Shown: positions 11,947 through 32,258, counted from the stretch's first letter. The stretch is DNA of 64,000 bases from an uncultured Bacilli bacterium (GCA_947630495.1 CANRHS010000001.1:157-64156); one strand, 5' to 3'. Translations and numbers: made by a program. The notes: generated by a model from the sequence alone, not told the origin.

Positions 11947-13695
11947 TTATCGCCTTGCCTTTCTACTTGTCATATCTTGAAAGGTTTCTCGAACCATATC
12001 TGCGTCTATTTTAATAACCATATCTTGTCCTCGAAAGATTTCTTTTAAAAGTCTACTTCTTAAACTATTAACAACTGTTTGAAGACTTCTTGCTCCTGTA
12101 TTTAACTTATAAGCTTCCTCTGCCATTTCTAAATAGGCATCTTCTTCTATTTCAAGTTTCTTATTCCTTTTGGAAACAAAATCTATTAAACCTTTAATTG
12201 GACTTATTTCTGATTCTTTTAAAATTCTATATAAACTTTCTTTAGAATATTCTTCTGTATGAAGAAAAGTATTTAATCTACCAACCAATTCTCTTTCAAG
12301 ACCTAGATTTATTAAATCTTCTGATGTAATACTATAACTTTCTATATTGGCATTTTTGGCTTCGGCTCCAAATCCTAAACCAGGCCTAACTTCCGTTTTC
12401 TTTTCTCTTAAACTAGTTAAAGCACCAGCACAGATAAAAGTTAATTTAGAAGTATCAAAACTTATTTTTTGAAATTCATAGTTTTTTCCAAGTGTAATTT
12501 GATATTTACCTCCACCCATGAAATCTAAAAGACGATGTTGAATAGCTTGTTTCATAACTAAATCTCTACCTTGATCACTATTATAAGATATTTTCTCAAA
12601 CTCATCAAAAACAATTATTCCACGTTCTGCTTTCTCTAAATTTCTATTAGATTGTTCATATAATTCTTTTAAAATATCTTCTAAATCACCTCCAACATAA
12701 CCTGTAGCTGAGTAATTAGTAGAAGAAGTTCTAACAAAAGGAGCTCCAAATTTTTCAGTTATTTCTCGGGAAATCGCTGTTTTACCAGTTCCCGTTGGAC
12801 CATCTAAGAAAATAATCGATCTTTCTCCATCTTGAACTTTTCCTTCTCTTGCTAGCATTTGATTAGTTAACAGATTATAAAATAATTTTTCACAAACATC
12901 TTCTTGTCCAATAAACTTTGCCTTTATTTCATCAAGTAATTGCCAAAGTTGTTCTTCTTCAATTTTAACTTCTTGCGCTTGTTGTTTTGGTAATTCTCCA
13001 TAACGACGTTCCAACCAATCTTTATTTTCTTTATCTAATTCACTAATAGATTGGTCAATACTTTCTTTTTCTAGTCCTTTAATAAATTTATCAATATCAA
13101 TATTTTTTTTATTATCTATATCTATATATGGAAATCTTTCTAATTTTCTTTTATCTACTAACTTATTAATATCTTCATAACTTGGATGAGAGGTAAATTC
13201 TTTAATTCCAAGTTTGTCAAATGAAAAAATACTAAAAAACTTACTAAGATAAAGATATTGAAAAATCACTTCAGGACACATTTCAGGTTTAAAATTCGCA
13301 GTCTCCCAAAGTATTCCTGTCCTTAGAAGTATAGGTATAAAATGAATTCTATATATAGTTCTGTAATATTCATCTTTATCATTAGCCTCTCTGATACTAA
13401 ATTTTTCTACATCTTCCTTTTCTAAATGAAAAAATCTATATATTTTTTGTAGTTCTGGATATTTATCAAGTACATTTTTTATATTTCCTTCTAATTCTAA
13501 GCCTGCCAAAAATAAAGATAATTCCACTTTTTCATCATTATTAAGTGAATAATCAACAAATTCAAACTTTAAAACACCCCTATCTCTAGGTAATGCATAT
13601 TTAATATCTTTATCAACTAGATTATCAAAAATATCAATAGCCTTATTTATAAGTTTTCTAGTTTCTTCAGTTAACATACTATATTCTGTTTCCAT
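11947..13695 (-). CDS. ClpX-family AAA+ unfoldase paralogue; a novel roughly 250-aa N-terminal domain replaces the zinc-binding domain
   Basis: FLDGPTGTGKT (Walker A), GYVGGD (pore-1 GYVG loop), IVFDEFEKIS (Walker B), PGLGFGAE (IGF/LGF ClpP-docking loop), TGARSLQ (sensor-2). Probable ATG start at 13695 with RBS ggaaggaaagtgag. Confidence 0.7.
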   Translation of the reverse strand: METEYSMLTEETRKLINKAIDIFDNLVDKDIKYALPRDRGVLKFEFVDYSLNNDEKVELSLFLAGLELEGNIKNVLDKYPELQKIYRFFHLEKEDVEKFSIREANDKDEYYRTIYRIHFIPILLRTGILWETANFKPEMCPEVIFQYLYLSKFFSIFSFDKLGIKEFTSHPSYEDINKLVDKRKLERFPYIDIDNKKNIDIDKFIKGLEKESIDQSISELDKENKDWLERRYGELPKQQAQEVKIEEEQLWQLLDEIKAKFIGQEDVCEKLFYNLLTNQMLAREGKVQDGERSIIFLDGPTGTGKTAISREITEKFGAPFVRTSSTNYSATGYVGGDLEDILKELYEQSNRNLEKAERGIIVFDEFEKISYNSDQGRDLVMKQAIQHRLLDFMGGGKYQITLGKNYEFQKISFDTSKLTFICAGALTSLREKKTEVRPGLGFGAEAKNANIESYSITSEDLINLGLERELVGRLNTFLHTEEYSKESLYRILKESEISPIKGLIDFVSKRNKKLEIEEDAYLEMAEEAYKLNTGARSLQTVVNSLRSRLLKEIFRGQDMVIKIDADMVRETFQDMTSRKARR

Positions 13696-13850
13696 AAATC
13701 TCACTTTCCTTCCACTTTGTTCAAGACATATATAGTCAAATCTACTATTATATTACAAAAAAATTATAGCAAAAAATAAGTATATTTACAATAATTTTAA
13801 GGAAAATAATCACAACTTTTTTATTTTAACATGCAAAGTATGGGTTAACC

Positions 13851-24310: not shown

Positions 24311-25006
24311 TTATTTGTCAAATGAATTTATGTTAATTTTTATTCCAGGACCCATTGTTCCAGATATACTTATGTTCTTAACATAATCACCTTTAACAGT
24401 TGCAGGTTTAAGTTTTAGAATTGTAGAAACAAAACTATTTAAGTTTTCAAGAAGTTTTTCTTCTTCAAAACTAGCTTTTCCAATAACACCATGAACATTA
24501 CCAAAACTATCTGTTCTAAATTCAACACGTCCAGATTTAACATCTTTAACGGCCTTAGCAACATCAGTTGTAACAGTTCCAGTCTTTGGATTTGGCATTA
24601 AACCTTTAGGTCCTAAAACTCTACCTAATTTACCAAGAAGTGGCATAGTTTCTGGAGTTGCAATTAAAGTATCAAAATCGAACCAGTTTTCTTTTTCGAT
24701 TTTTTCAATCATATCCATATCTCCTACATAGTCAGCCCCAGCTTCTTTAGCAGCCTTAGCTTGATCTCCCTTAGCAATTACTAAAACTTTTTTAGTTTTA
24801 CCAGTTCCATTTGGAAGAACAATAGCTCCTCTTAATTGTTGGTCAGCTTTCTTAGTATCAAGATTTAAATACATTGCAACTTCAATTGTTGCATCAAACT
24901 TAGCATTTGATGTTTCCTTAACTAACTTAATAGCATCTTCTTTAGTATATAACTTTCCTTTTTCTAACTTTGTTAAAGCTTCGTTATATCTTTTTCCTCT
25001 TTTCAT
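24311..25006 (-). CDS. rplA: 50S ribosomal protein L1
   Basis: 231 aa, MKRGKRY... Confidence 0.9.
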
Positions 25007-25065
25007 ATTTACCTCCTTGTGGTTTTAGCGGACTAATAATCCTTCCACATAGGTTTCCCTATATG

Positions 25066-25488
25066 TTATTTAATTTCAATTCCCATATTAAGTGCTGTTC
25101 CTTTAACTGTCTTAATTGCAGCCTCAAGGTCATTAGCATTTAAATCTGGTAATTTAATTGTAGCAATCTCTTTTACTTGGTCTTCCGTTAAAGAACCAAC
25201 TATTTCATTTCTTCCTTTAACAGAACCCTTTTGCACTTTAGCATACTTCTTAATTAAGTAAGCCGTAGGTGGAGTTTTAATAACAAAGTCAAAACTTCTA
25301 TCATCATAAATAGTAATTTCAACTGGTGCTATATCTCCCATCTTATCTCTAGTTGCATCATTATACTTAGTACAAAATTCTTGTAAGTTAATTCCAGCAG
25401 GTCCTAGAACAGTACCAACTGGTGGAGCAGGGTTAGCTTTTCCTGCTTCAATTTCAAGTTTAACTTTCTTTACAATCTCTTTTGCCAT
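25066..25488 (-). CDS. rplK: 50S ribosomal protein L11
   Basis: MAKEIVKKVKLEIEAGKANPAPPVGTVLGPAGIN... Confidence 0.9.
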   Translation of the reverse strand: MAKEIVKKVKLEIEAGKANPAPPVGTVLGPAGINLQEFCTKYNDATRDKMGDIAPVEITIYDDRSFDFVIKTPPTAYLIKKYAKVQKGSVKGRNEIVGSLTEDQVKEIATIKLPDLNANDLEAAIKTVKGTALNMGIEIK

Positions 25489-25896
25489 TATAACACTTCC
25501 TTTCTTAATTTCTTAGAAGCGAGTGGTCCAAATGGTTAACTTTGTCCGCTTAATAATATAAGTTAAGACATTTCCCTCCCACTAAATCTATATTAATCAA
25601 ATATAGCATTACAAATAATACCATGATTTCTCTTAAAAATCAAGTATTTTTTGCAATTTTGTTAATCTTTTTTATCTCATTTTTATTATATTCTATACTT
25701 ATCACTTAAATAACCTAGAAATTAGAAAGATGAATATATTTTAAAGTAGTAAAAATAACAACTAAAAAACCTATACAACTATTGTAACAATTGGTACGTA
25801 TACCAAAGTACATTGTATCTACATTCTGATTTCAAAGAATCAAGGAATAGGAATGTCCTTTACACATACATACTAAAACCTATCCTAGTATTCAAG

Positions 25897-25947
25897 CTAT
25901 AAAGGGCTTGCGCGGACGCCGTTACTATTGTTGGCATTGTTGTTGTT
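25897..25947 (-). pseudogene. Left half of a degenerate Asn-codon-rich duplicate of the 3' end of the 29734-31233 gene (TR-like remnant)
   Basis: The minus strand reads aac aac aac aat gcc aac aat agt aac ggc gtc cgc gca agc cct tta tag (NNNNANNSNGVRASPL*). The gene's own end is tac tac tac atc gcg agt gtc tat tgc ggc gtc cgc gca gcc (YYYIASVYCGVRAA). Confidence 0.5.
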
Positions 25948-26030
25948 ATACGAAAAAATTTGTTATGCGAACAAAACAAAAAAGTTATTAAAAAAATCAT
26001 TATTTGCTAATGATTTTTTTCGCATAATAT

Positions 26031-27020
26031 TTACTTTAATGATAGTAATTGTTTAAGCAAATCCTCATTTTTATTCCAAGATGGTGTGATATTATAAGGC
26101 AAAATATCTTTATAAGCTTTATTAATTGCTTCTCGTTTTGTTTTTTCGTTTGCTTGAGCATATATTTCAGTTGTTGTTATACTCTCATGCCCTAAAAAAT
26201 CTCTAATGTATACGATATTAACTCCGGCTTCTAATAAATGCATTGCTCTAGTTCTTCTAAGTGCATGTGGAGAAATTTTTTTATTTATATTTGCTTTTTG
26301 TATATATTTATCAACAATTTTTTGAATACTCCTTGATGTCAATTTTTCTTTTTTGGAATTACTAAAAAGGTATGAAACATTAGAAAAGTCATTTTCACTA
26401 ATAAATTGCAATAATAATTTTTTGGTATTATTCATTATAGGAACAGAACGTCCTTTTCTACCTTTTCCTATAACATTAACGCATGGATTATTATCTAATC
26501 TTAAATCCATTACCTTAATTTCTAAAAGTTCTGATAATCTTAGACCTGCATCATATAATAAATTTAATAAAACAAAATCCCTACGTCCTTTTATAGTCTT
26601 TGTATTAATAGTTTGAAATACAGTTTGTAATTCATCTATAGTTAAGTATTCTTTTTTTTTCTTCACATTTTTTTTGACTCTTATTTGTAATATATCTTGA
26701 AATTTAATTAAGTTAGCAGGATCTTCTATATTTACATATTGATAAAAAGATTTAATGGCAGCAAGTCTTTGATTTCTTGTATTTATTGAACAATTTCTTG
26801 CATCTTCTAAATATTTCAAAAATTCCTTTATTAAATCTTTATCAATTATTTCAAATGTTATATTTTTTATTTCTATTTTTTTAATATTTACCAAATAAGA
26901 TATTAATAAATTAAAAGTATCTTTATATGAAATTATTGTATTTATAGAAGCATTAATTTCCTGAGGTAAATATATATTAAAAAAATTATTTAAATAATAA
27001 GCAAAATTTTTATTATTCAT
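26031..27020 (-). CDS. ritC: Tyrosine recombinase, third gene of the RIT trio
   Basis: 329 aa. C-terminal catalytic region HALRRTRAMHLLEAG...TTEIYAQ (R..H..R..Y). Its start overlaps the stop of ritB. Confidence 0.7.
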   Translation of the reverse strand: MNNKNFAYYLNNFFNIYLPQEINASINTIISYKDTFNLLISYLVNIKKIEIKNITFEIIDKDLIKEFLKYLEDARNCSINTRNQRLAAIKSFYQYVNIEDPANLIKFQDILQIRVKKNVKKKKEYLTIDELQTVFQTINTKTIKGRRDFVLLNLLYDAGLRLSELLEIKVMDLRLDNNPCVNVIGKGRKGRSVPIMNNTKKLLLQFISENDFSNVSYLFSNSKKEKLTSRSIQKIVDKYIQKANINKKISPHALRRTRAMHLLEAGVNIVYIRDFLGHESITTTEIYAQANEKTKREAINKAYKDILPYNITPSWNKNEDLLKQLLSLK

Positions 27021-27990
27021 CTTCTAAATCCTCCATTTCTAAAATTAAATTACTACCATATTTTTCAATTTGTGTTCTTATGCTTGGATACATATCTGAA
27101 GTAAGACGTAGATAGTAAGCTGTAGAAGATATTTTTGTGTGACCAACATAAGTGCTTAATATAGGAAGATAACTATTAATATCGATTCCATTTTCTACCG
27201 CTTGTTTTAAACTTAAAACACAAAATGTATGTCTAAAATCATGTAATCTTGGACCATTTTCTGTGTGTTTAATTTTAGAATAATGTAAAATTTTTCTGAA
27301 ACAGCTATAGATACTATCCGGTGTATATTTAGTGCCATTTCCATGTCTGAAAAAATAATCTTCTTTTTTATAATTTTGATTGTAATTAATATTTATATAA
27401 TTTAGTTTTTGCATTAATTTTTCAGAAATTACAATTATTCTGGTTTCAGTATTTTTAGTATTATGAATAGTGATTGAATTATTATTAAAATCTATATCTT
27501 CTATTTTAATATTAACACATTCTGATACTCTTAATCCAGTTGAATATAATAAATTAAAAATTGCATTAACTACTAAATTTTTATATGTATCAGTATAATA
27601 AAAATTTTCTAGTGTTTTAAAGAAAATTGTTAATTCTTCTTTGGTAAAAATATGAGGAATGTGTGTTTCATTACCACGTTTATATTTTTTATTTGGAATA
27701 ACATATGCTTCAATGCCATTAGAAACTAAATATTTAGCAAATTGTCTTAAAACTGATGCATAGGCACTTTTACTACATTGTTTTATATTTTTAGAATTTA
27801 AGAAATTTTCTAATATTTTTTTAGTGATTACTTTAGCATCACTATTATTTAAAAGTGTATAGTTATCGAACACTACTAGTTTTGATTTTTGAGAATAGTA
27901 ATTATAACCAAGTTTTATTTTATATTCATAGTATTGATATAAATAATCTTTAAATGGTCCATTAAAAATATTATTATTCATTAGTATCAT
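27013..27990 (-). CDS. ritB: Tyrosine recombinase, second gene of the RIT trio
   Basis: 325 aa. GLRVSECVNIKIEDID, HDFRHTFCVLSL and STAYYLR catalytic-tyrosine region. Confidence 0.7.
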   Translation of the reverse strand: MILMNNNIFNGPFKDYLYQYYEYKIKLGYNYYSQKSKLVVFDNYTLLNNSDAKVITKKILENFLNSKNIKQCSKSAYASVLRQFAKYLVSNGIEAYVIPNKKYKRGNETHIPHIFTKEELTIFFKTLENFYYTDTYKNLVVNAIFNLLYSTGLRVSECVNIKIEDIDFNNNSITIHNTKNTETRIIVISEKLMQKLNYININYNQNYKKEDYFFRHGNGTKYTPDSIYSCFRKILHYSKIKHTENGPRLHDFRHTFCVLSLKQAVENGIDINSYLPILSTYVGHTKISSTAYYLRLTSDMYPSIRTQIEKYGSNLILEMEDLEDE

Positions 27991-29239
27991 CCTCCAAAAA
28001 ACACTTTTTTAAAGAATTGGTATCAATTTTTAGGTAATTTCTTGTACTTTCTATATTTACATGTCCTAAAGTAGATGCTATAATTTCCATTGGAATATTT
28101 GCTTTTAACATTGAACTGGCTAAAGTGTGTCTAAAAGTATGTATTCCTTTTCTTGCTTTTGATAAATAATCTATATTTGCCTTTTGGTAAGTTTTTATTA
28201 AATATTTCTCAATATTTGCGGTATCACTTAATTTCGATGCTTTATCATCATGAGTTACAAAAATATATTTCGAATCAGTTTTGGGTCTACCATTTTGAAC
28301 ATAATTAATAATAGCTATTCCAACATCTTCAAAAAGTGGTAATTGTATTTCAACTTTTGTTTTATGGTGAATAAAAGTTATTGTATTATTTTCCCAATCT
28401 ATGTTAGAAAATTGAAGATTTTTAATATCAATAAATCTAATACCTAATCTAATAGCTAATAGAACAATTGCCTTATTCCTTTTTTCAACATCACTTTCAT
28501 CTACTAAATTATTAACTATTTTTTCAAGTTCCTCAGGTTCCCAAATTGTTACTAAACTGATTGGGGCGTGATATTTTATTTTATCAATTAAGACTGAATA
28601 ATTAGAAATAGTATATTTACTTTCGTATAAAAAATTTAAAAACATTTTTAAAGCCCAATTATAATTTTTTCTAATATAATAGCTTGAGTCATAATATTTA
28701 TTAATAAATTTTTGAATTACACTTAAAGTTAATTTTTCATAATTATCAATACTTTCATTTTCAAAAAAGACCATAATATCTTTTGTAAGTTTTATTTTTT
28801 TTGTAATTGTCACTTCTGAATTGTAATTTTTCATTTCTTGCTTATATTTTTCTAATATTTCCTTATTATAATTAGAAATATTAATTTCATAATGATTATT
28901 AATTATTCTTGAACTTTTTGTTTTTAATTTTAAAGCATTTAATCCTTCAAGAGCATTTATAGAGTGTATAGTGTACAAATAATCTTTATGACTTTTATTA
29001 TTTTTTTGATAATCCAAATATAATTGTTTGCTATTATCATCATAACTCAAGTTATTTTTTTGCAAAAAATCCAATAACTGTTTCCAATTGCGACACATCT
29101 GATTGTAAAAATTATAACTATAGTTACCAATCAGAATTTCCTCCTTTCTTTTTTCGATTAATTCGTTTAATGATAAATAATTCATATTTATCTCCCTCCT
29201 TTTTTGCCATTTAAAAACGATATTAAATGACAAATACAT
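27974..29239 (-). CDS. ritA: Tyrosine recombinase with an extended N-terminal domain, first gene of the RIT trio
   Basis: 421 aa. LGIRFIDIKNLQF, HTFRHTLASSML and TRNYLKID. Probable true start at MNYLSLNE near 29185. Confidence 0.7.
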   Translation of the reverse strand: MYLSFNIVFKWQKRREINMNYLSLNELIEKRKEEILIGNYSYNFYNQMCRNWKQLLDFLQKNNLSYDDNSKQLYLDYQKNNKSHKDYLYTIHSINALEGLNALKLKTKSSRIINNHYEINISNYNKEILEKYKQEMKNYNSEVTITKKIKLTKDIMVFFENESIDNYEKLTLSVIQKFINKYYDSSYYIRKNYNWALKMFLNFLYESKYTISNYSVLIDKIKYHAPISLVTIWEPEELEKIVNNLVDESDVEKRNKAIVLLAIRLGIRFIDIKNLQFSNIDWENNTITFIHHKTKVEIQLPLFEDVGIAIINYVQNGRPKTDSKYIFVTHDDKASKLSDTANIEKYLIKTYQKANIDYLSKARKGIHTFRHTLASSMLKANIPMEIIASTLGHVNIESTRNYLKIDTNSLKKCFLEDDTNE

Positions 29240-29384
29240 ATTATATCATTATACGAAAAAAAATCATTATTTTTTTAATGATTTTGCAACATTTTATACT
29301 CAACAGAAGAAGTTAAAATATAGAATGAACTTATTTTATTAATTTTTATGAATTTAAATTTTTTCGCATAACAAATTTTTTCGT

Positions 29385-29500
29385 ATAACAACAATTATGT
29401 GAATTTTCACATAATTGTTGTTAACGGTCCCATCCGAATTCCAATTAGCGACATTATTAGAGTTACTAGCGGAAGGCGACAAGAACCACAGGCGCCAATT
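29385..29500 (-). pseudogene. Right half of the degenerate Asn-rich duplicate of the gene's 3' end (TR-like remnant)
   Basis: The minus strand reads WRLWFLSPSASNSNNVANWNSDGTVNNNY. The gene encodes GEWFLSPSSYGSNYVALWGSSGRVYYYI. Confidence 0.5.
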
Positions 29501-29580
29501 AACTATATCCTATTTTCCGACAATAAAATGTTGTATTTTTACTACTTTAAAATAACAAATATTAATATTAGGTAAAATCT

Positions 29581-29650
29581 TCTCCCAATCTTAGGCAACC
29601 GTCTAAGATTGGGAGTGCTAATTTCTTTCGCCGAAAGAAATTAGTTTACC
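29581..29650 (-). other. Two adjacent strong hairpins between the secreted gene and the TR-like remnant
   Basis: ctcccaatcttag-N8-ctaagattgggag (13-bp stem) and ctaatttctttcg..cgaaagaaattag (about 12-bp stem). Confidence 0.45.
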
Positions 29651-29733
29651 ACTATTTTATTTATTCTCTATCTTCCCATCTTATCACTGTATCAAATTAG
29701 CCGGTCCCTCTCGGACTTCGCCCTCGTTGGGAC

Positions 29734-31233
29734 TCAGGATATCAAGGTGTAAGGTGCTGTCAAACTTCCATCATTATTTCCTGTTATTTGTACGGTGGAT
29801 TTAAGATAAATGGCTGCGCGGACGCCGCAATAGACACTCGCGATGTAGTAGTACACACGGCCACTACTGCCCCAGAGAGCGACATAGTTAGAGCCATAGG
29901 AAGACGGCGACAAGAACCATTCGCCAGCCGGGTTGGCTGTTTTATATAGCCAACTTGTTCCTACTACTGTACTTGTAAATCCTGAAATTCCTGTTTTTGT
30001 TGTCCAATAACTACTATCTACACTATACCCATAATCACTTGGATACATTAATCCTATTTTTCCTGTCCATGGATTATAATCTGATGTACTTCTTTCTTGC
30101 GTATATAAATTTACTGTTGTTGCTTCATATGTTACTTTTCCTAAATACCATTTTGCTTCTTCATATATCATATTTTGTGCTTTACTTGTTAATGATGTTA
30201 AATAACTTCCATTTAAATATGTATTTACTTCCGATGATGTCCAACTTGGATTATTGCTACTATTCCATACCATTGAAGATGATGATACACTATTTCTTAC
30301 TATCTTCATATGTTCATTTTCACTATCATCTTTAAAGATTCCTATTATTCGCCATGTTTCACAATTACTTGAATTTTGTTCACTTGTACTATCGCTACAA
30401 TTGAAATATACATAATTATTTACTGTCTCTCCTGAATATCTATATTCTCTTATTGTTGATTTATCAGCACTTTTATCTGTAATTGGTTCACAACTTTCTT
30501 CACTACATGTTGTTGGTATTCCTATCAATCCATCCGTTCCTAACTTGGCTTTTAACATTTCAGTTGCTACTACTGTTGTTGGGGTTTCTTGTTCTTCTTC
30601 TAATGTCTTTTCTTCAAAGTCTCCATTGACTGATACTTTTACTGATGCAAAAGCGTCACGATTCCAGGTTTCCATGTCCATATCTGATGTTTCGGCATCA
30701 TCTCCTGAACCTAAATGCATTTCATTTGATACCCACATATATAACTTATAGGTAATTGTTATTTCATCAGTTTGATTTGCTGCTATTTTATTTACCCAGA
30801 TTTTTTTACCATCTTCAAAATTGTCATACTTTCCTTCAGCAATTACTTCTTGTTCTTCACCATCTGGTAATTGTTCAGTTAATCTAAATCTTAAGAACTC
30901 ATCTGGTATTCTTGTATGTCTATCAACTGGCTCGTCTCCCCATTTAATTACTATTTCATACCAGATTGGTTTTGTATATGTATTCTTTCCTTCTATTGTA
31001 AACTCGAATACTTGACTTGGGTCATATGTATTTGTTGGCATTGCATTTTGAATATTTATTGTAGAACTTCCTTCGGTATACTTCATATAAATATCTCCCG
31101 CAACGAGTTGTTGATTAGGGCCAACCTTAAAATAATTCCATAAGGCATATGTTCCTGTTATGATTAATGTTAATACTAATAATACTGCTCCTAGTATTAC
31201 CCATTTTCTCTTTTTTAAATATTTGTTTTCCAT
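29734..31233 (-). CDS. Secreted protein with a SipW-cognate-type signal peptide and a GC-rich C-terminal DUF1566/C-type-lectin-like variable-region-like segment
   Basis: N-terminus KKRKWVILGAVLLVLTLIITGTYALWNYF resembles the ...GTFAYF class of signal peptides. C-terminus SWLYKTANPAGEWFLSPSSYGSNYVALWGSSGRVYYYIASVYCGVRAAIYL is encoded by a locally >50% GC stretch (29737-29930). Confidence 0.55.
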   Translation of the reverse strand: MENKYLKKRKWVILGAVLLVLTLIITGTYALWNYFKVGPNQQLVAGDIYMKYTEGSSTINIQNAMPTNTYDPSQVFEFTIEGKNTYTKPIWYEIVIKWGDEPVDRHTRIPDEFLRFRLTEQLPDGEEQEVIAEGKYDNFEDGKKIWVNKIAANQTDEITITYKLYMWVSNEMHLGSGDDAETSDMDMETWNRDAFASVKVSVNGDFEEKTLEEEQETPTTVVATEMLKAKLGTDGLIGIPTTCSEESCEPITDKSADKSTIREYRYSGETVNNYVYFNCSDSTSEQNSSNCETWRIIGIFKDDSENEHMKIVRNSVSSSSMVWNSSNNPSWTSSEVNTYLNGSYLTSLTSKAQNMIYEEAKWYLGKVTYEATTVNLYTQERSTSDYNPWTGKIGLMYPSDYGYSVDSSYWTTKTGISGFTSTVVGTSWLYKTANPAGEWFLSPSSYGSNYVALWGSSGRVYYYIASVYCGVRAAIYLKSTVQITGNNDGSLTAPYTLIS

Positions 31234-31422
31234 ATTTTCTTATCCTCCTTTACATGGTCCACTATTTTAATAATATTATAAGATAAATACTTGGACTTTT
31301 CAAGTCTTTTTGAGAGAAACTCAAAAAAAGACATAGAAAAGGATAGTATTAGTATACTACTTCTCTATGTCTAAATTTGTCGAACAATATAAATTTAATT
31401 TGTACTAATATTGATAGACCCC

Positions 31423-31430
31423 CCCCATGG
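31423..31430. repeat. C8/G8 homopolymer tract in the upstream region of the secreted gene
   Basis: ttgatagaCCCCCCCCatgg, about 190 bp upstream of the start codon at 31233. Confidence 0.6.
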
Positions 31431-31559
31431 TAAACTGATTGCAAACTATAGTTCTTGATACATTTAGTAATTTTACAGCATTTTTTACCATACTCGGGTT
31501 CCTCCTTTATCTTATATGAATATCTTATCATATTTAGATAAATAGTCAAGTACTTTTAC

Positions 31560-32258
31560 TTAATTTCTTTTTAAATCTGATATTGTTTTTACTTTATCTT
31601 TATATTCTTTATTATAAGAAACTAATTCAGTTATAAAATTCATGAATAAATCTAAATCATGAATTTCAAGATCTAATATTAAATCTTTATATTCTTGATA
31701 TAACTTTCTTAATTTATCACTTTTAAAATTAGATTCTTCTAAATCAATAGTTCTAAATAAACTTTTAAGAAGACTATGATTTAAATTATTTATATTATAA
31801 ATTAAAGAATTTTTTAATTTATACCATTCACTTGTATCTATTATATTAAATTCATTACTAGAATTATCATATAAAATATTAACTCCTACTAAATCAGCCA
31901 TATAAATATTCGGAAATTTTTCTATTTCAAGTCTTATTTTATTATAAGCATTAATTAAATTATCTATTAATAAACTACTATCTAAACCTAAATAAATATC
32001 TTTTCCTTTTAAATAATTCATAGTATATGCTTTAATTAAATTACTATCTTCTAAATAATATATATCTTTAGGAAACGCAATATTAGGTGAAGTATGATCT
32101 TTTATATAAATATTTTTATATTTCCTAACTGTTTTAAATATTTTAATAACAGTATCTTTATTTAAAAAGTAACAAGACCCTTCTTTACCTTTGGCAAGAA
32201 AAGTATTATTACTTTCTATTTCTAATATATCTATAATATTAACTAAGACTTTACCCAT
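31560..32258 (-). CDS. Small protein-kinase-like/phosphotransferase-fold protein, translationally coupled to nusG
   Basis: Gly-rich loop and Lys (KGKEGSCYFLNKDTVIKIFK), catalytic-loop-like IYMADLVGVNILYD, DFG-like FNIIDTSEW. The ATG starts 2 nt after the nusG TAG. Confidence 0.4.
   Translation of the reverse strand: MGKVLVNIIDILEIESNNTFLAKGKEGSCYFLNKDTVIKIFKTVRKYKNIYIKDHTSPNIAFPKDIYYLEDSNLIKAYTMNYLKGKDIYLGLDSSLLIDNLINAYNKIRLEIEKFPNIYMADLVGVNILYDNSSNEFNIIDTSEWYKLKNSLIYNINNLNHSLLKSLFRTIDLEESNFKSDKLRKLYQEYKDLILDLEIHDLDLFMNFITELVSYNKEYKDKVKTISDLKRN

Follow-up and report, generated by a model that had tools for sequence, protein, structure and literature searches.

A diversity-generating retroelement template repeat split by a RIT element in an uncultured gut Bacilli bacterium

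The target gene, its template repeat and the intervening element

The stretch of DNA analysed here (the window; GCA_947630495.1, CANRHS010000001.1:157-64156) represents 64.0 kb of a 64.7-kb contig from the metagenome-assembled genome (MAG) of an uncultured Bacilli bacterium, and all coordinates given without a locus name are window positions. Its minus strand holds a target gene of a diversity-generating retroelement (DGR), with a variable region (VR) near the 3' end of the gene, and downstream of it a template repeat (TR) that is split in two by a mobile element carrying three recombinase genes. Such elements, reportedly treated by Ricker et al. in 2013, are known as RIT, for recombinase in trio. 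The pairing of a VR with an interrupted template had been put forward in an original prediction made by reading the window alone; the comparison with related loci (designated here by L numbers) now permits both the state of the template and the circumstances of its interruption to be evaluated.

The target gene (29734–31233, minus strand) encodes 499 amino acids comprising a signal or transmembrane anchor, a TasA-like beta-sandwich and a C-terminal C-type-lectin-like domain with the VR; its C-terminal part reads ...EWFLSPSSYGSNYVALWGSSGRVYYYIASVYCGVRAAIYLKS..., and it belongs to a very large gene family, with numerous paralogs in a single genome, that is found in MAGs of uncultured 'Bacilli' from the gut of rabbits, ruminants and humans. 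The VR (minus strand, from 29919 to 29818) is 102 nt long (34 codons, 12% A), encodes WFLSPSSYGSNYVALWGSSGRVYYYIASVYCGVR and terminates in GGCGTCCGC(GCA), the same sequence as is found in the TR. Its GC content is 50–53% in a surrounding region that is mostly at 15–35%, which bears out the earlier observation of a GC-rich segment closing a secreted gene. No Pfam family matches the protein as a whole, and the C-terminal domain taken separately gives a weak match to DUF6273. When modelled, this domain is C-type-lectin-like, with a long series of C-type lectin domains as its counterparts, as had been anticipated, and the VR is placed within that fold. The gene product is predicted to be a membrane-anchored surface protein whose C-type-lectin-like C-terminal domain bears the DGR VR.

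Downstream of the gene, the same strand contains a second copy of the VR, divided into two pieces at approximately the positions originally proposed. The 5' part (29488 to 29415, minus strand; 74 nt) ends in the core AACAACAA and was recovered independently as direct repeat D1 in a repeat search; the 3' part (25939 to 25912, minus strand; 28 nt) ends in GGCGTCCGC. Fusion of the two halves via one copy of the core (29415–29422 / 25940–25947) gives a gap-free alignment with the VR over 34 codons. The fused TR translates as WFLSPSASNSNNVANWNSDGTVNNNNANNSNGVR and is rich in Asn codons exactly where VRs vary, again as first noticed, and the restored TR would read GGGACCGTTAACAACAACAATGCCAAC across the junction. 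The 12-mer GGCGTCCGCGCA closes both the VR and the TR and is present at no other site in the window (0.05 occurrences expected by chance); past this 12-mer, a candidate for the GC-rich 3' boundary (IMH/IMH*-like) of DGRs, the VR and TR sides differ by an indel and substitutions.

The TR forms part of a compact unit that lies ~185 nt 3' of the target gene and comprises a 21-nt motif (TATTTTAAAGTAGTAAAAATA; 29534–29554, minus strand), the 102-nt TR, a conserved structured 3' element of the DGR RNA (25758–25911, minus strand) and an inverted copy of the motif (25737–25757, plus strand). The motif pair is a perfect inverted repeat (I3), and in the predicted fold of the rebuilt 356-nt unit (z=-2.9) the two motif copies form a closing stem of ~25 bp. 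Upstream, the rebuilt TR matches the cassettes of relatives in the motif ATTTTAAAGTAGTAAAAATA, which in units linked to a reverse transcriptase (RT) represents the last RT codons, and in GGTAGGATA; downstream, it matches them in the 3' element (...TGTAAAGGACA...ATAGAT...GGTATACGTAC...), which aligns with the TR-downstream sequence of L013, L022, L040, L042 (twice), L046 and L080. The RNAalifold consensus of the 3' element has 30 pairs, 8 of them with compensatory changes, and an additional small hairpin with C-G/G-C/U-A covariation was recognized by eye; an Rfam search of 24800–32000, the 3' element included, returned no family. The non-coding RNA context of the window TR (5' motif, TR and 3' element) therefore aligns as a whole with that of RT-linked units.

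Paired inverted motifs of 18–21 nt (TTTAAAGTAGTAAAAATA) bracket the TR units of L022, L040, L042 (twice), L046 and the window, L013 being the sole TR unit examined that has no clear 3' copy. In RT-linked units one motif copy falls within the C-terminal codons of the RT and the other within those of an open reading frame (ORF) of 88–91 amino acids; RT-less compact units have kept both motif copies and not the ORFs. The paired copies may serve as a stem that closes the RNA, or may delimit a module capable of duplication. With a possible relation of the unit to miniature inverted-repeat transposable elements in mind, the motif boundaries were inspected for target-site duplications, and none that was convincing was found there.

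Between the two TR halves lies a 3.47-kb RIT element (25940–29394, minus strand). Its three overlapping tyrosine recombinase ORFs, adjacent and all on the minus strand (27974–29239, with a probable start at 29185; 27013–27990; and 26031–27020), match Phage_integrase with E values of 5e-26, 3e-23 and 5e-35, respectively, and its terminal inverted repeats, TTGTTGTTATACGAAAAAATTTGTTATGCGAA (25940–25971 and 29363–29394), are perfect over 32 bp and contain two TTGTTATRCGAA subrepeats each. This is the arrangement described for RIT elements, namely three successive tyrosine recombinase genes that overlap and share one orientation, with inverted repeats at the flanks (Van Houdt et al., 2012; PMC3414803). 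On one side only, a 20-bp palindrome, TTATGTGAAAATTCACATAA (29395–29414; I9), composed of two inverted recombinase-type half sites, separates the TR core from the RIT inverted repeat. The left junction thus reads TR...GTT-AACAACAA-TTATGTGAAAATTCACATAA-TTGTTGTTATACG... and the right junction ...CGTAT-AACAACAA-CAATGCC...TR, confirming that the element sits exactly between the TR halves at a shared core, as had been claimed; the junction of a circular form would read ...CGTATAACAACAA-TTATGTGAAAATTCACATAA-TTGTTGTTATACG....

The insertion core lies inside a run of Asn codons, 28 nt from the TR 3' end, and integration at a short core common to the element end and the target is the expected product of a tyrosine recombinase element. 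Neither the cores nor the inverted repeats show any damage, and none of the three recombinase ORFs is truncated. The core sequence AACAACAA itself occurs 17 times in the window (4.45 expected from shuffles), with 12 of these occurrences outside the TR/RIT region, and a random choice among such sites would rarely hit a TR.

The enzymatic components of a DGR were sought throughout the 64-kb window, and neither an RT (YxDD scan, and tblastn with the RT, Avd and accessory proteins of the family, all E>0.4) nor an Avd or accessory homolog (same tblastn, all E>0.4) is present, in agreement with the first reading of the window; any activity would therefore need an RT from elsewhere in the genome. A GC-rich hairpin identified by folding (29701–29737, minus strand) starts at the stop codon of the target gene, 81 nt past the VR, a distance larger than that in the paradigm of Bordetella phage BPP-1. 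It is kept in the orthologous locus L001 and has an analogue directly 3' of the stop codon in L013 and L046, both of them RT-linked targets, and in L056, whereas most other, RT-remote paralogs, including those in the MAG of L001 itself, have AT-rich terminators instead. This GC hairpin, a candidate target-recognition element, is common to RT-linked targets, and its presence hints that the window locus derives from a primary cassette. Two AT-rich hairpins (29582–29644, minus strand; stems of 12 and 13 bp, z=-3.9) lie farther downstream and are conserved in L001. Of the suggestion that hairpins stand at the position of DGR recognition elements, there remain the hairpins themselves, all of which fold, and the occurrence of the GC-rich one in RT-linked targets; the two AT-rich ones are not shared with those targets.

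Template and variable region compared across genomes

Comparison of the window TR with its own VR over the 102 nt shows mismatches at 20 of the 28 TR adenines and at 21 of the 74 non-adenines (Fisher p=1e-4). Classified by template base in this way, the mismatches do display the adenine enrichment on which the original prediction turned. Those at non-adenines, mostly at third codon positions, are ten times as frequent as in functional TR/VR pairs from this DGR family (2/76, 1/75 and 4/78). A different picture is obtained with L001 (CANRDV010000061), the ortholog in the MAG of a sister species, whose synteny with the window extends from leuS via nusG as far as the target gene (87% nucleotide identity): between the window TR and the L001 VR, 15 of 28 TR adenines are mismatched, as opposed to no more than 2 of 74 non-adenines (Fisher p=1e-8). 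A TR/VR difference confined to adenines is thus absent within the window and present across genomes. Because the window TR is nearly perfectly cognate with the VR of a syntenic ortholog, it is a genuine TR; by the same alignments, the adjacent TR is not the template of the present VR of the window. The proposal that the downstream copy is the TR of this VR can accordingly be retained insofar as the copy is DGR-derived and a true TR, and has to be given up, in view of the 21/74 non-adenine mismatches, as regards its being the template of the VR now in place.

The discrepancy between the two comparisons is accounted for by the VR rather than by the TR. The VR belongs to a paralog-type tract (29752–29919, minus strand) that also includes ~75 nt 3' of it, and both flanks of this tract are orthologous to L001. 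In an alignment of the window, L001 and the paralog L010, the window sequence follows L001 upstream of the VR, L010 from the VR to ~29752, and L001 again from the last codons; between 29826 and 29752 it differs from L010 at 2–3 positions and from L001 at ~20. Since DGR homing replaces the VR only, and the tract reaches 75 nt beyond it, gene conversion from a paralog of the L010 type is indicated, and the window VR with its ~75-nt flank is best explained as having been acquired by gene conversion from a paralog whose VR was served by another TR. That one common TR served the window VR and those of L010, L057 and L005 was ruled out, as the differences among them lie at third-codon positions and are of non-adenine type.

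Complete DGRs of the same family, with a homologous target in place, are found at L046, L013, L040 and L042, where the order is target, GC hairpin, accessory ORF, bAvd-like ORF, RT, TR and conserved 3' element. The bAvd-like ORF matches PF22296 over its full length (E 2e-6), and the RT matches RVT_1 (E 1e-18) and contains GxxxSQ...YMDD motifs. Mismatches between TR and VR at adenines and non-adenines number 22 and 2 in L046, 12 and 1 in L013, and 19 and 4 in L040; the own target gene of L042 has no recognizable VR. The cassettes represent a bona fide DGR family. In L046, for example, the target gene (L046 10001–11719) is followed by GC-rich hairpins just past the stop codon, an ORF of 128 amino acids, the bAvd-like ORF with its PF22296 match, the RT (12596–13696; RVT_1, LGAMTSQ...YMDD), the TR (13724–13822), the conserved non-coding element of ~110 nt and, 3' of the latter, an ORF of 88 amino acids. 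This complete cassette (L046 9658–14237) occupies a site whose counterpart in the window (42605/42631) contains no insertion, L046 being elsewhere syntenic with the window at 81% nucleotide identity; the cassettes of the family thus occupy different chromosomal positions.

Compact TR units without an RT, ~310–340 nt in length, are present in L022, between a thymidine kinase gene and an MBL-fold gene, and in L042, where the order is target, compact TR, accessory ORF, avd, RT and a second, RT-linked TR. The VR of L022 is fitted best by the RT-linked TR of L042 (15 adenine versus 4 non-adenine mismatches), and better by it than by the TR only 2.2 kb away; as the better-fitting TR is on another contig, templates and targets evidently work in trans. 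The defined flanks of RT-less TR copies (5' motif, 3' RNA and closing stem) suggest a modular RNA gene. The MAG CANRGW01 was seen to contain at least three TR units (L042 1945–2262 and 4153–4677; L022 4164–4471) and only one RT. Incomplete cassettes were encountered as well: at L085 (2544–3453) the accessory and bAvd ORFs are followed directly by murG, with no RT, and matches to the accessory and avd genes in L024, and to the accessory gene in L049, are accompanied by no RT match at either locus.

RIT elements inside DGR templates

Relatives of the window RIT were obtained via exact-protein look-ups, without DGRs being considered in their choice. Among the lineages near that of the window (51–98% amino acid identity), six of the nine sampled sit inside DGR TRs, the insertions affecting at least five different TRs at several positions within the TR. 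The nearest, L080 (98% identical to the third recombinase of the window), has the same TR right half and 3' element with different DNA beyond, and L081 (76% to the same protein) has TR halves on its flanks. At 57% identity, L085/86/88 and L087 are inside another TR, likewise at AACAACAA, beside accessory and bAvd genes, with an RT in L087 and none in L085. L180 (55%) shows the order RT, TR-left, RIT, TR-right, accessory gene. The elements of L094/L096 (51%), which have different inverted repeats, are inserted in a TR at a TGCGGC core; L097, with a recombinase identical to that of L094, is in a different TR; and L182 (51%) has a TR on one side and lies beside accessory, bAvd and RT genes. When the TR of L094 is rebuilt across the RIT it is still cognate with the neighbouring VR (12 adenine versus 2 non-adenine mismatches). 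Lineages or copies outside TRs are represented by L082/83, L090–93, L187/188 and L179, the last of which has the same protein as L180 and is placed in a coding gene. In 80 more distant RIT loci (38–52% identity, varied environments), no TR-like flank and no DGR gene was found, and 79 target-gene loci contain no other RIT copies or inverted repeats.

That these elements are mobile is shown by the 98% copy in L080 and by the occurrence of the same third recombinase at the L180 and L179 sites and at the L094 and L097 sites. A single ancestral RIT insertion that has since co-diverged with its DGR was ruled out as the sole explanation, as identical recombinases are found in different TRs and at a non-TR site. 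The original prediction had held that the template was later invaded by the RIT; the insertion stands, as part of a recurrent pattern rather than as an isolated accident. Full-text literature searches retrieved no paper in which RIT elements and DGRs are both treated, and the RIT papers found describe no preferred target, so that the association appears to be real, recurrent and undescribed. Candidate causes are a sequence preference, a structural preference, tolerance of insertion at the site, and a regulatory role. It may be, although the chances seem to us slightly short of even, that a subclade of gut-Firmicute RIT elements is specialized for DGR TRs and parasitizes, silences or reversibly toggles hypermutation, with the window as an instance at an (AAC)n run with excision-competent cores, and with RT-less TR units perhaps representing modular, duplicable RNA genes served in trans.

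A palindrome equivalent to that of the window is present in the related RITs L081, L085–88, L094 and L180. In every case it separates the TR-left half from the RIT inverted repeat, regardless of the orientation of the RIT genes (compare L087 with L085/86/88), a position that suggests either inversion in situ or a crossover that actually takes place in the palindrome. On metagenome contigs of RIT length (L080 1–86 and 3541–3877; the ends of L081) the same TR half is found inverted at both ends, in copies that are not identical. These inverted halves may reflect an assembly artefact at low coverage or inversion between two RIT copies, and both contigs were used for junction sequences only. The resemblance of L080 to the window ends ~60 nt past the 3' motif, and no rplK follows there.

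The state of the locus and its alternatives

The locus is most probably a silenced, RT-less satellite of a genuine DGR, that is, an orphan template whose TR has been split by a RIT element and whose VR has been replaced by paralog-type sequence. In the intact state, by analogy with known DGR biology and with the complete cassettes of relatives, the TR unit would be transcribed, a complex of RT and Avd would copy the TR RNA with adenine-specific errors, and the resulting complementary DNA (cDNA) would replace the VR of a target gene with matching ends. In the window, the accessory ORF, Avd and RT are all missing from the locus, and the 3.47-kb RIT has integrated by site-specific recombination at the AACAACAA core; as the template is physically split, templating should be abolished. 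The present VR and its ~75-nt flank would have been delivered by paralog gene conversion and not written by the adjacent TR, and the RIT insertion is one case of the recurrent RIT-in-template pattern. The earlier description of an orphaned cassette, possibly with a trans-acting TR, fits well with the RT-less units of L022 and L042; its further element, a decayed TR, does not.

Several considerations weigh against this interpretation. The L001 contig ends 124 nt past the stop codon, and thus the presence of the same TR in the ortholog is deduced from its VR and was not seen. The donor of the gene conversion was not observed, L010 being a paralog in another species. Only this contig of the genome is visible, and an RT, the true template of the VR or an intact second TR copy could exist elsewhere. 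Finally, the DGR of L013 looks active despite its having no clear 3' motif copy, which makes the role of the motif uncertain.

The origin of the satellite state may also have been different. Rather than having been born as an RT-less satellite, the locus may once have had its own accessory, Avd and RT genes 3' of a compact TR, as in L042, and later lost them by deletion, a history that we regard as possible and less probable than its converse. It is favoured by the gene order of L042, which equals that of the window up to the 3' motif, by the GC hairpin, common to the RT-linked L013 and L046 and missing in most RT-remote paralogs, and by the different chromosomal sites of DGR cassettes in relatives (that of L046 at the equivalent of window 42605/42631). 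However, no remnant of accessory, avd or RT genes is present in the 250 nt that separate the 3' motif from rplK, and the compact unit of L022 demonstrates that such a unit can stand alone between housekeeping genes.

It is unlikely that the TR is still functional in trans and switchable, with an RT and Avd supplied from elsewhere and the RIT toggling the template by precise excision at the two AACAACAA cores or by inversion. The necessary parts are at hand, both cores being identical and intact, the inverted repeats perfect and the three recombinase ORFs full length, and RT-less TR units do coexist with a single RT in a relative (L022 and L042, the VR of the former being best fitted by the TR of the latter with 15 adenine versus 4 non-adenine mismatches). 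An apparently intact Avd–RT set beside a RIT-split TR is seen at L094, L180, L182 and L087, the VR of L094 being still cognate, and the RIT genes of L087 and L085/86/88 are oriented differently with the palindrome on the same TR side. Nevertheless, neither an empty site nor a circular junction was seen, and the window VR does not match the window TR. Moreover, L080 has a decayed right core (AACAAAAT) and a split third recombinase, and the absence of an RT from L085/86 is the decay that would be expected to follow inactivation.

The silenced satellite with a replaced VR is likewise much to be preferred to slow mutational decay of an abandoned TR/VR pair, which is how the non-adenine mismatches had first been interpreted and which now seems very improbable. 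Differences at 21 of 74 non-adenine positions, mostly third codon positions, would by themselves agree with decay, but the TR differs from the ortholog VR at only 2 of 74 such positions although the genomes are ~13% diverged, so that the TR is not decayed; furthermore, the divergent tract continues ~75 nt past the VR, matches L010 almost exactly and returns sharply to orthology on both sides. The notion that the copy downstream of the gene is no more than a pseudogene fragment of its 3' end, with the RIT there by chance and no DGR involved, has the lack of an RT in the window in its favour and can for practical purposes be dismissed, given the presence of the 5' motif and the structured 3' RNA element that are specific to the family and adjoin RTs in relatives, the Asn codons exactly at VR-variable places, the adenine-specific relation to the ortholog VR, and the occurrence of RITs in TRs in 6 of 9 close lineages versus 0 of 80 distant ones.

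In several respects the locus resembles the DGRs of Bordetella phage BPP-1 (mtd/avd/TR/brt), Treponema denticola (TvpA) and Legionella (LdtA): the VR is at the 3' end of a ligand-binding protein with a C-type-lectin fold, the TR is AAY-rich with a putative GC-rich conserved 3' boundary, the TR-to-VR differences are adenine-specific (in the ortholog and relatives), Avd and an RT with a GxxxSQ motif are present (in relatives), and the structured RNA 3' of the TR has a position comparable to that of the BPP-1 spacer. It differs from them in that the window has no RT or Avd, a mobile element interrupts its TR and the VR next to that TR is not derived from it. In the family at large, moreover, the TR is either downstream of the RT or an extra compact unit, bracketed by the 21-nt inverted motif, and the family is hosted by AT-rich, uncultured Bacilli of the gut that have numerous paralogous targets. 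Multi-TR and remote-target DGRs are known from, e.g., Treponema denticola (PMC4891356). The present family similarly has one RT that serves several VRs on other contigs and more than one TR per genome (two in L042, a third in L022), and is unlike those systems in that its RT-less TR copies keep defined flanks, the unit in the window being disrupted. DGRs of the candidate phyla radiation (CPR) and DPANN provide a further example of several TRs combined with remote targets.

With other RIT elements the present ones share the occurrence of near-identical copies in different samples; the repeated presence of this Firmicute subclade inside DGR TRs and the extra 20-bp palindrome on one side set them apart. 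Recombinase switches (invertons, shufflons and the excisable skin element of sigK) offer an analogy for the switchable reading alone: there, too, an element at a short identical core breaks a functional sequence in a manner reversible in principle, whereas no excision or inversion product was observed here.

Considered alone, the locus is an ordinary decayed member of a known DGR system, and its context, namely modular RT-less units and above all a RIT in a template, is more notable. The combination of numerous paralogous lectin-fold targets with several template units per genome, some of them without an RT, bears on the question of how one RT serves many targets. For RIT elements, of whose target choice and biology next to nothing is known, the targeting of templates would, if true, provide the first defined target, and no mobile element was previously known to switch off or gate a hypermutation system.

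Upstream of the target gene, an ORF of 232 amino acids (31560–32258, minus strand) is situated between nusG and the target gene, breaking the usual secE-nusG-rplK order. It has no Pfam match, and occurs with at least 90% identity on several short ENA contigs.

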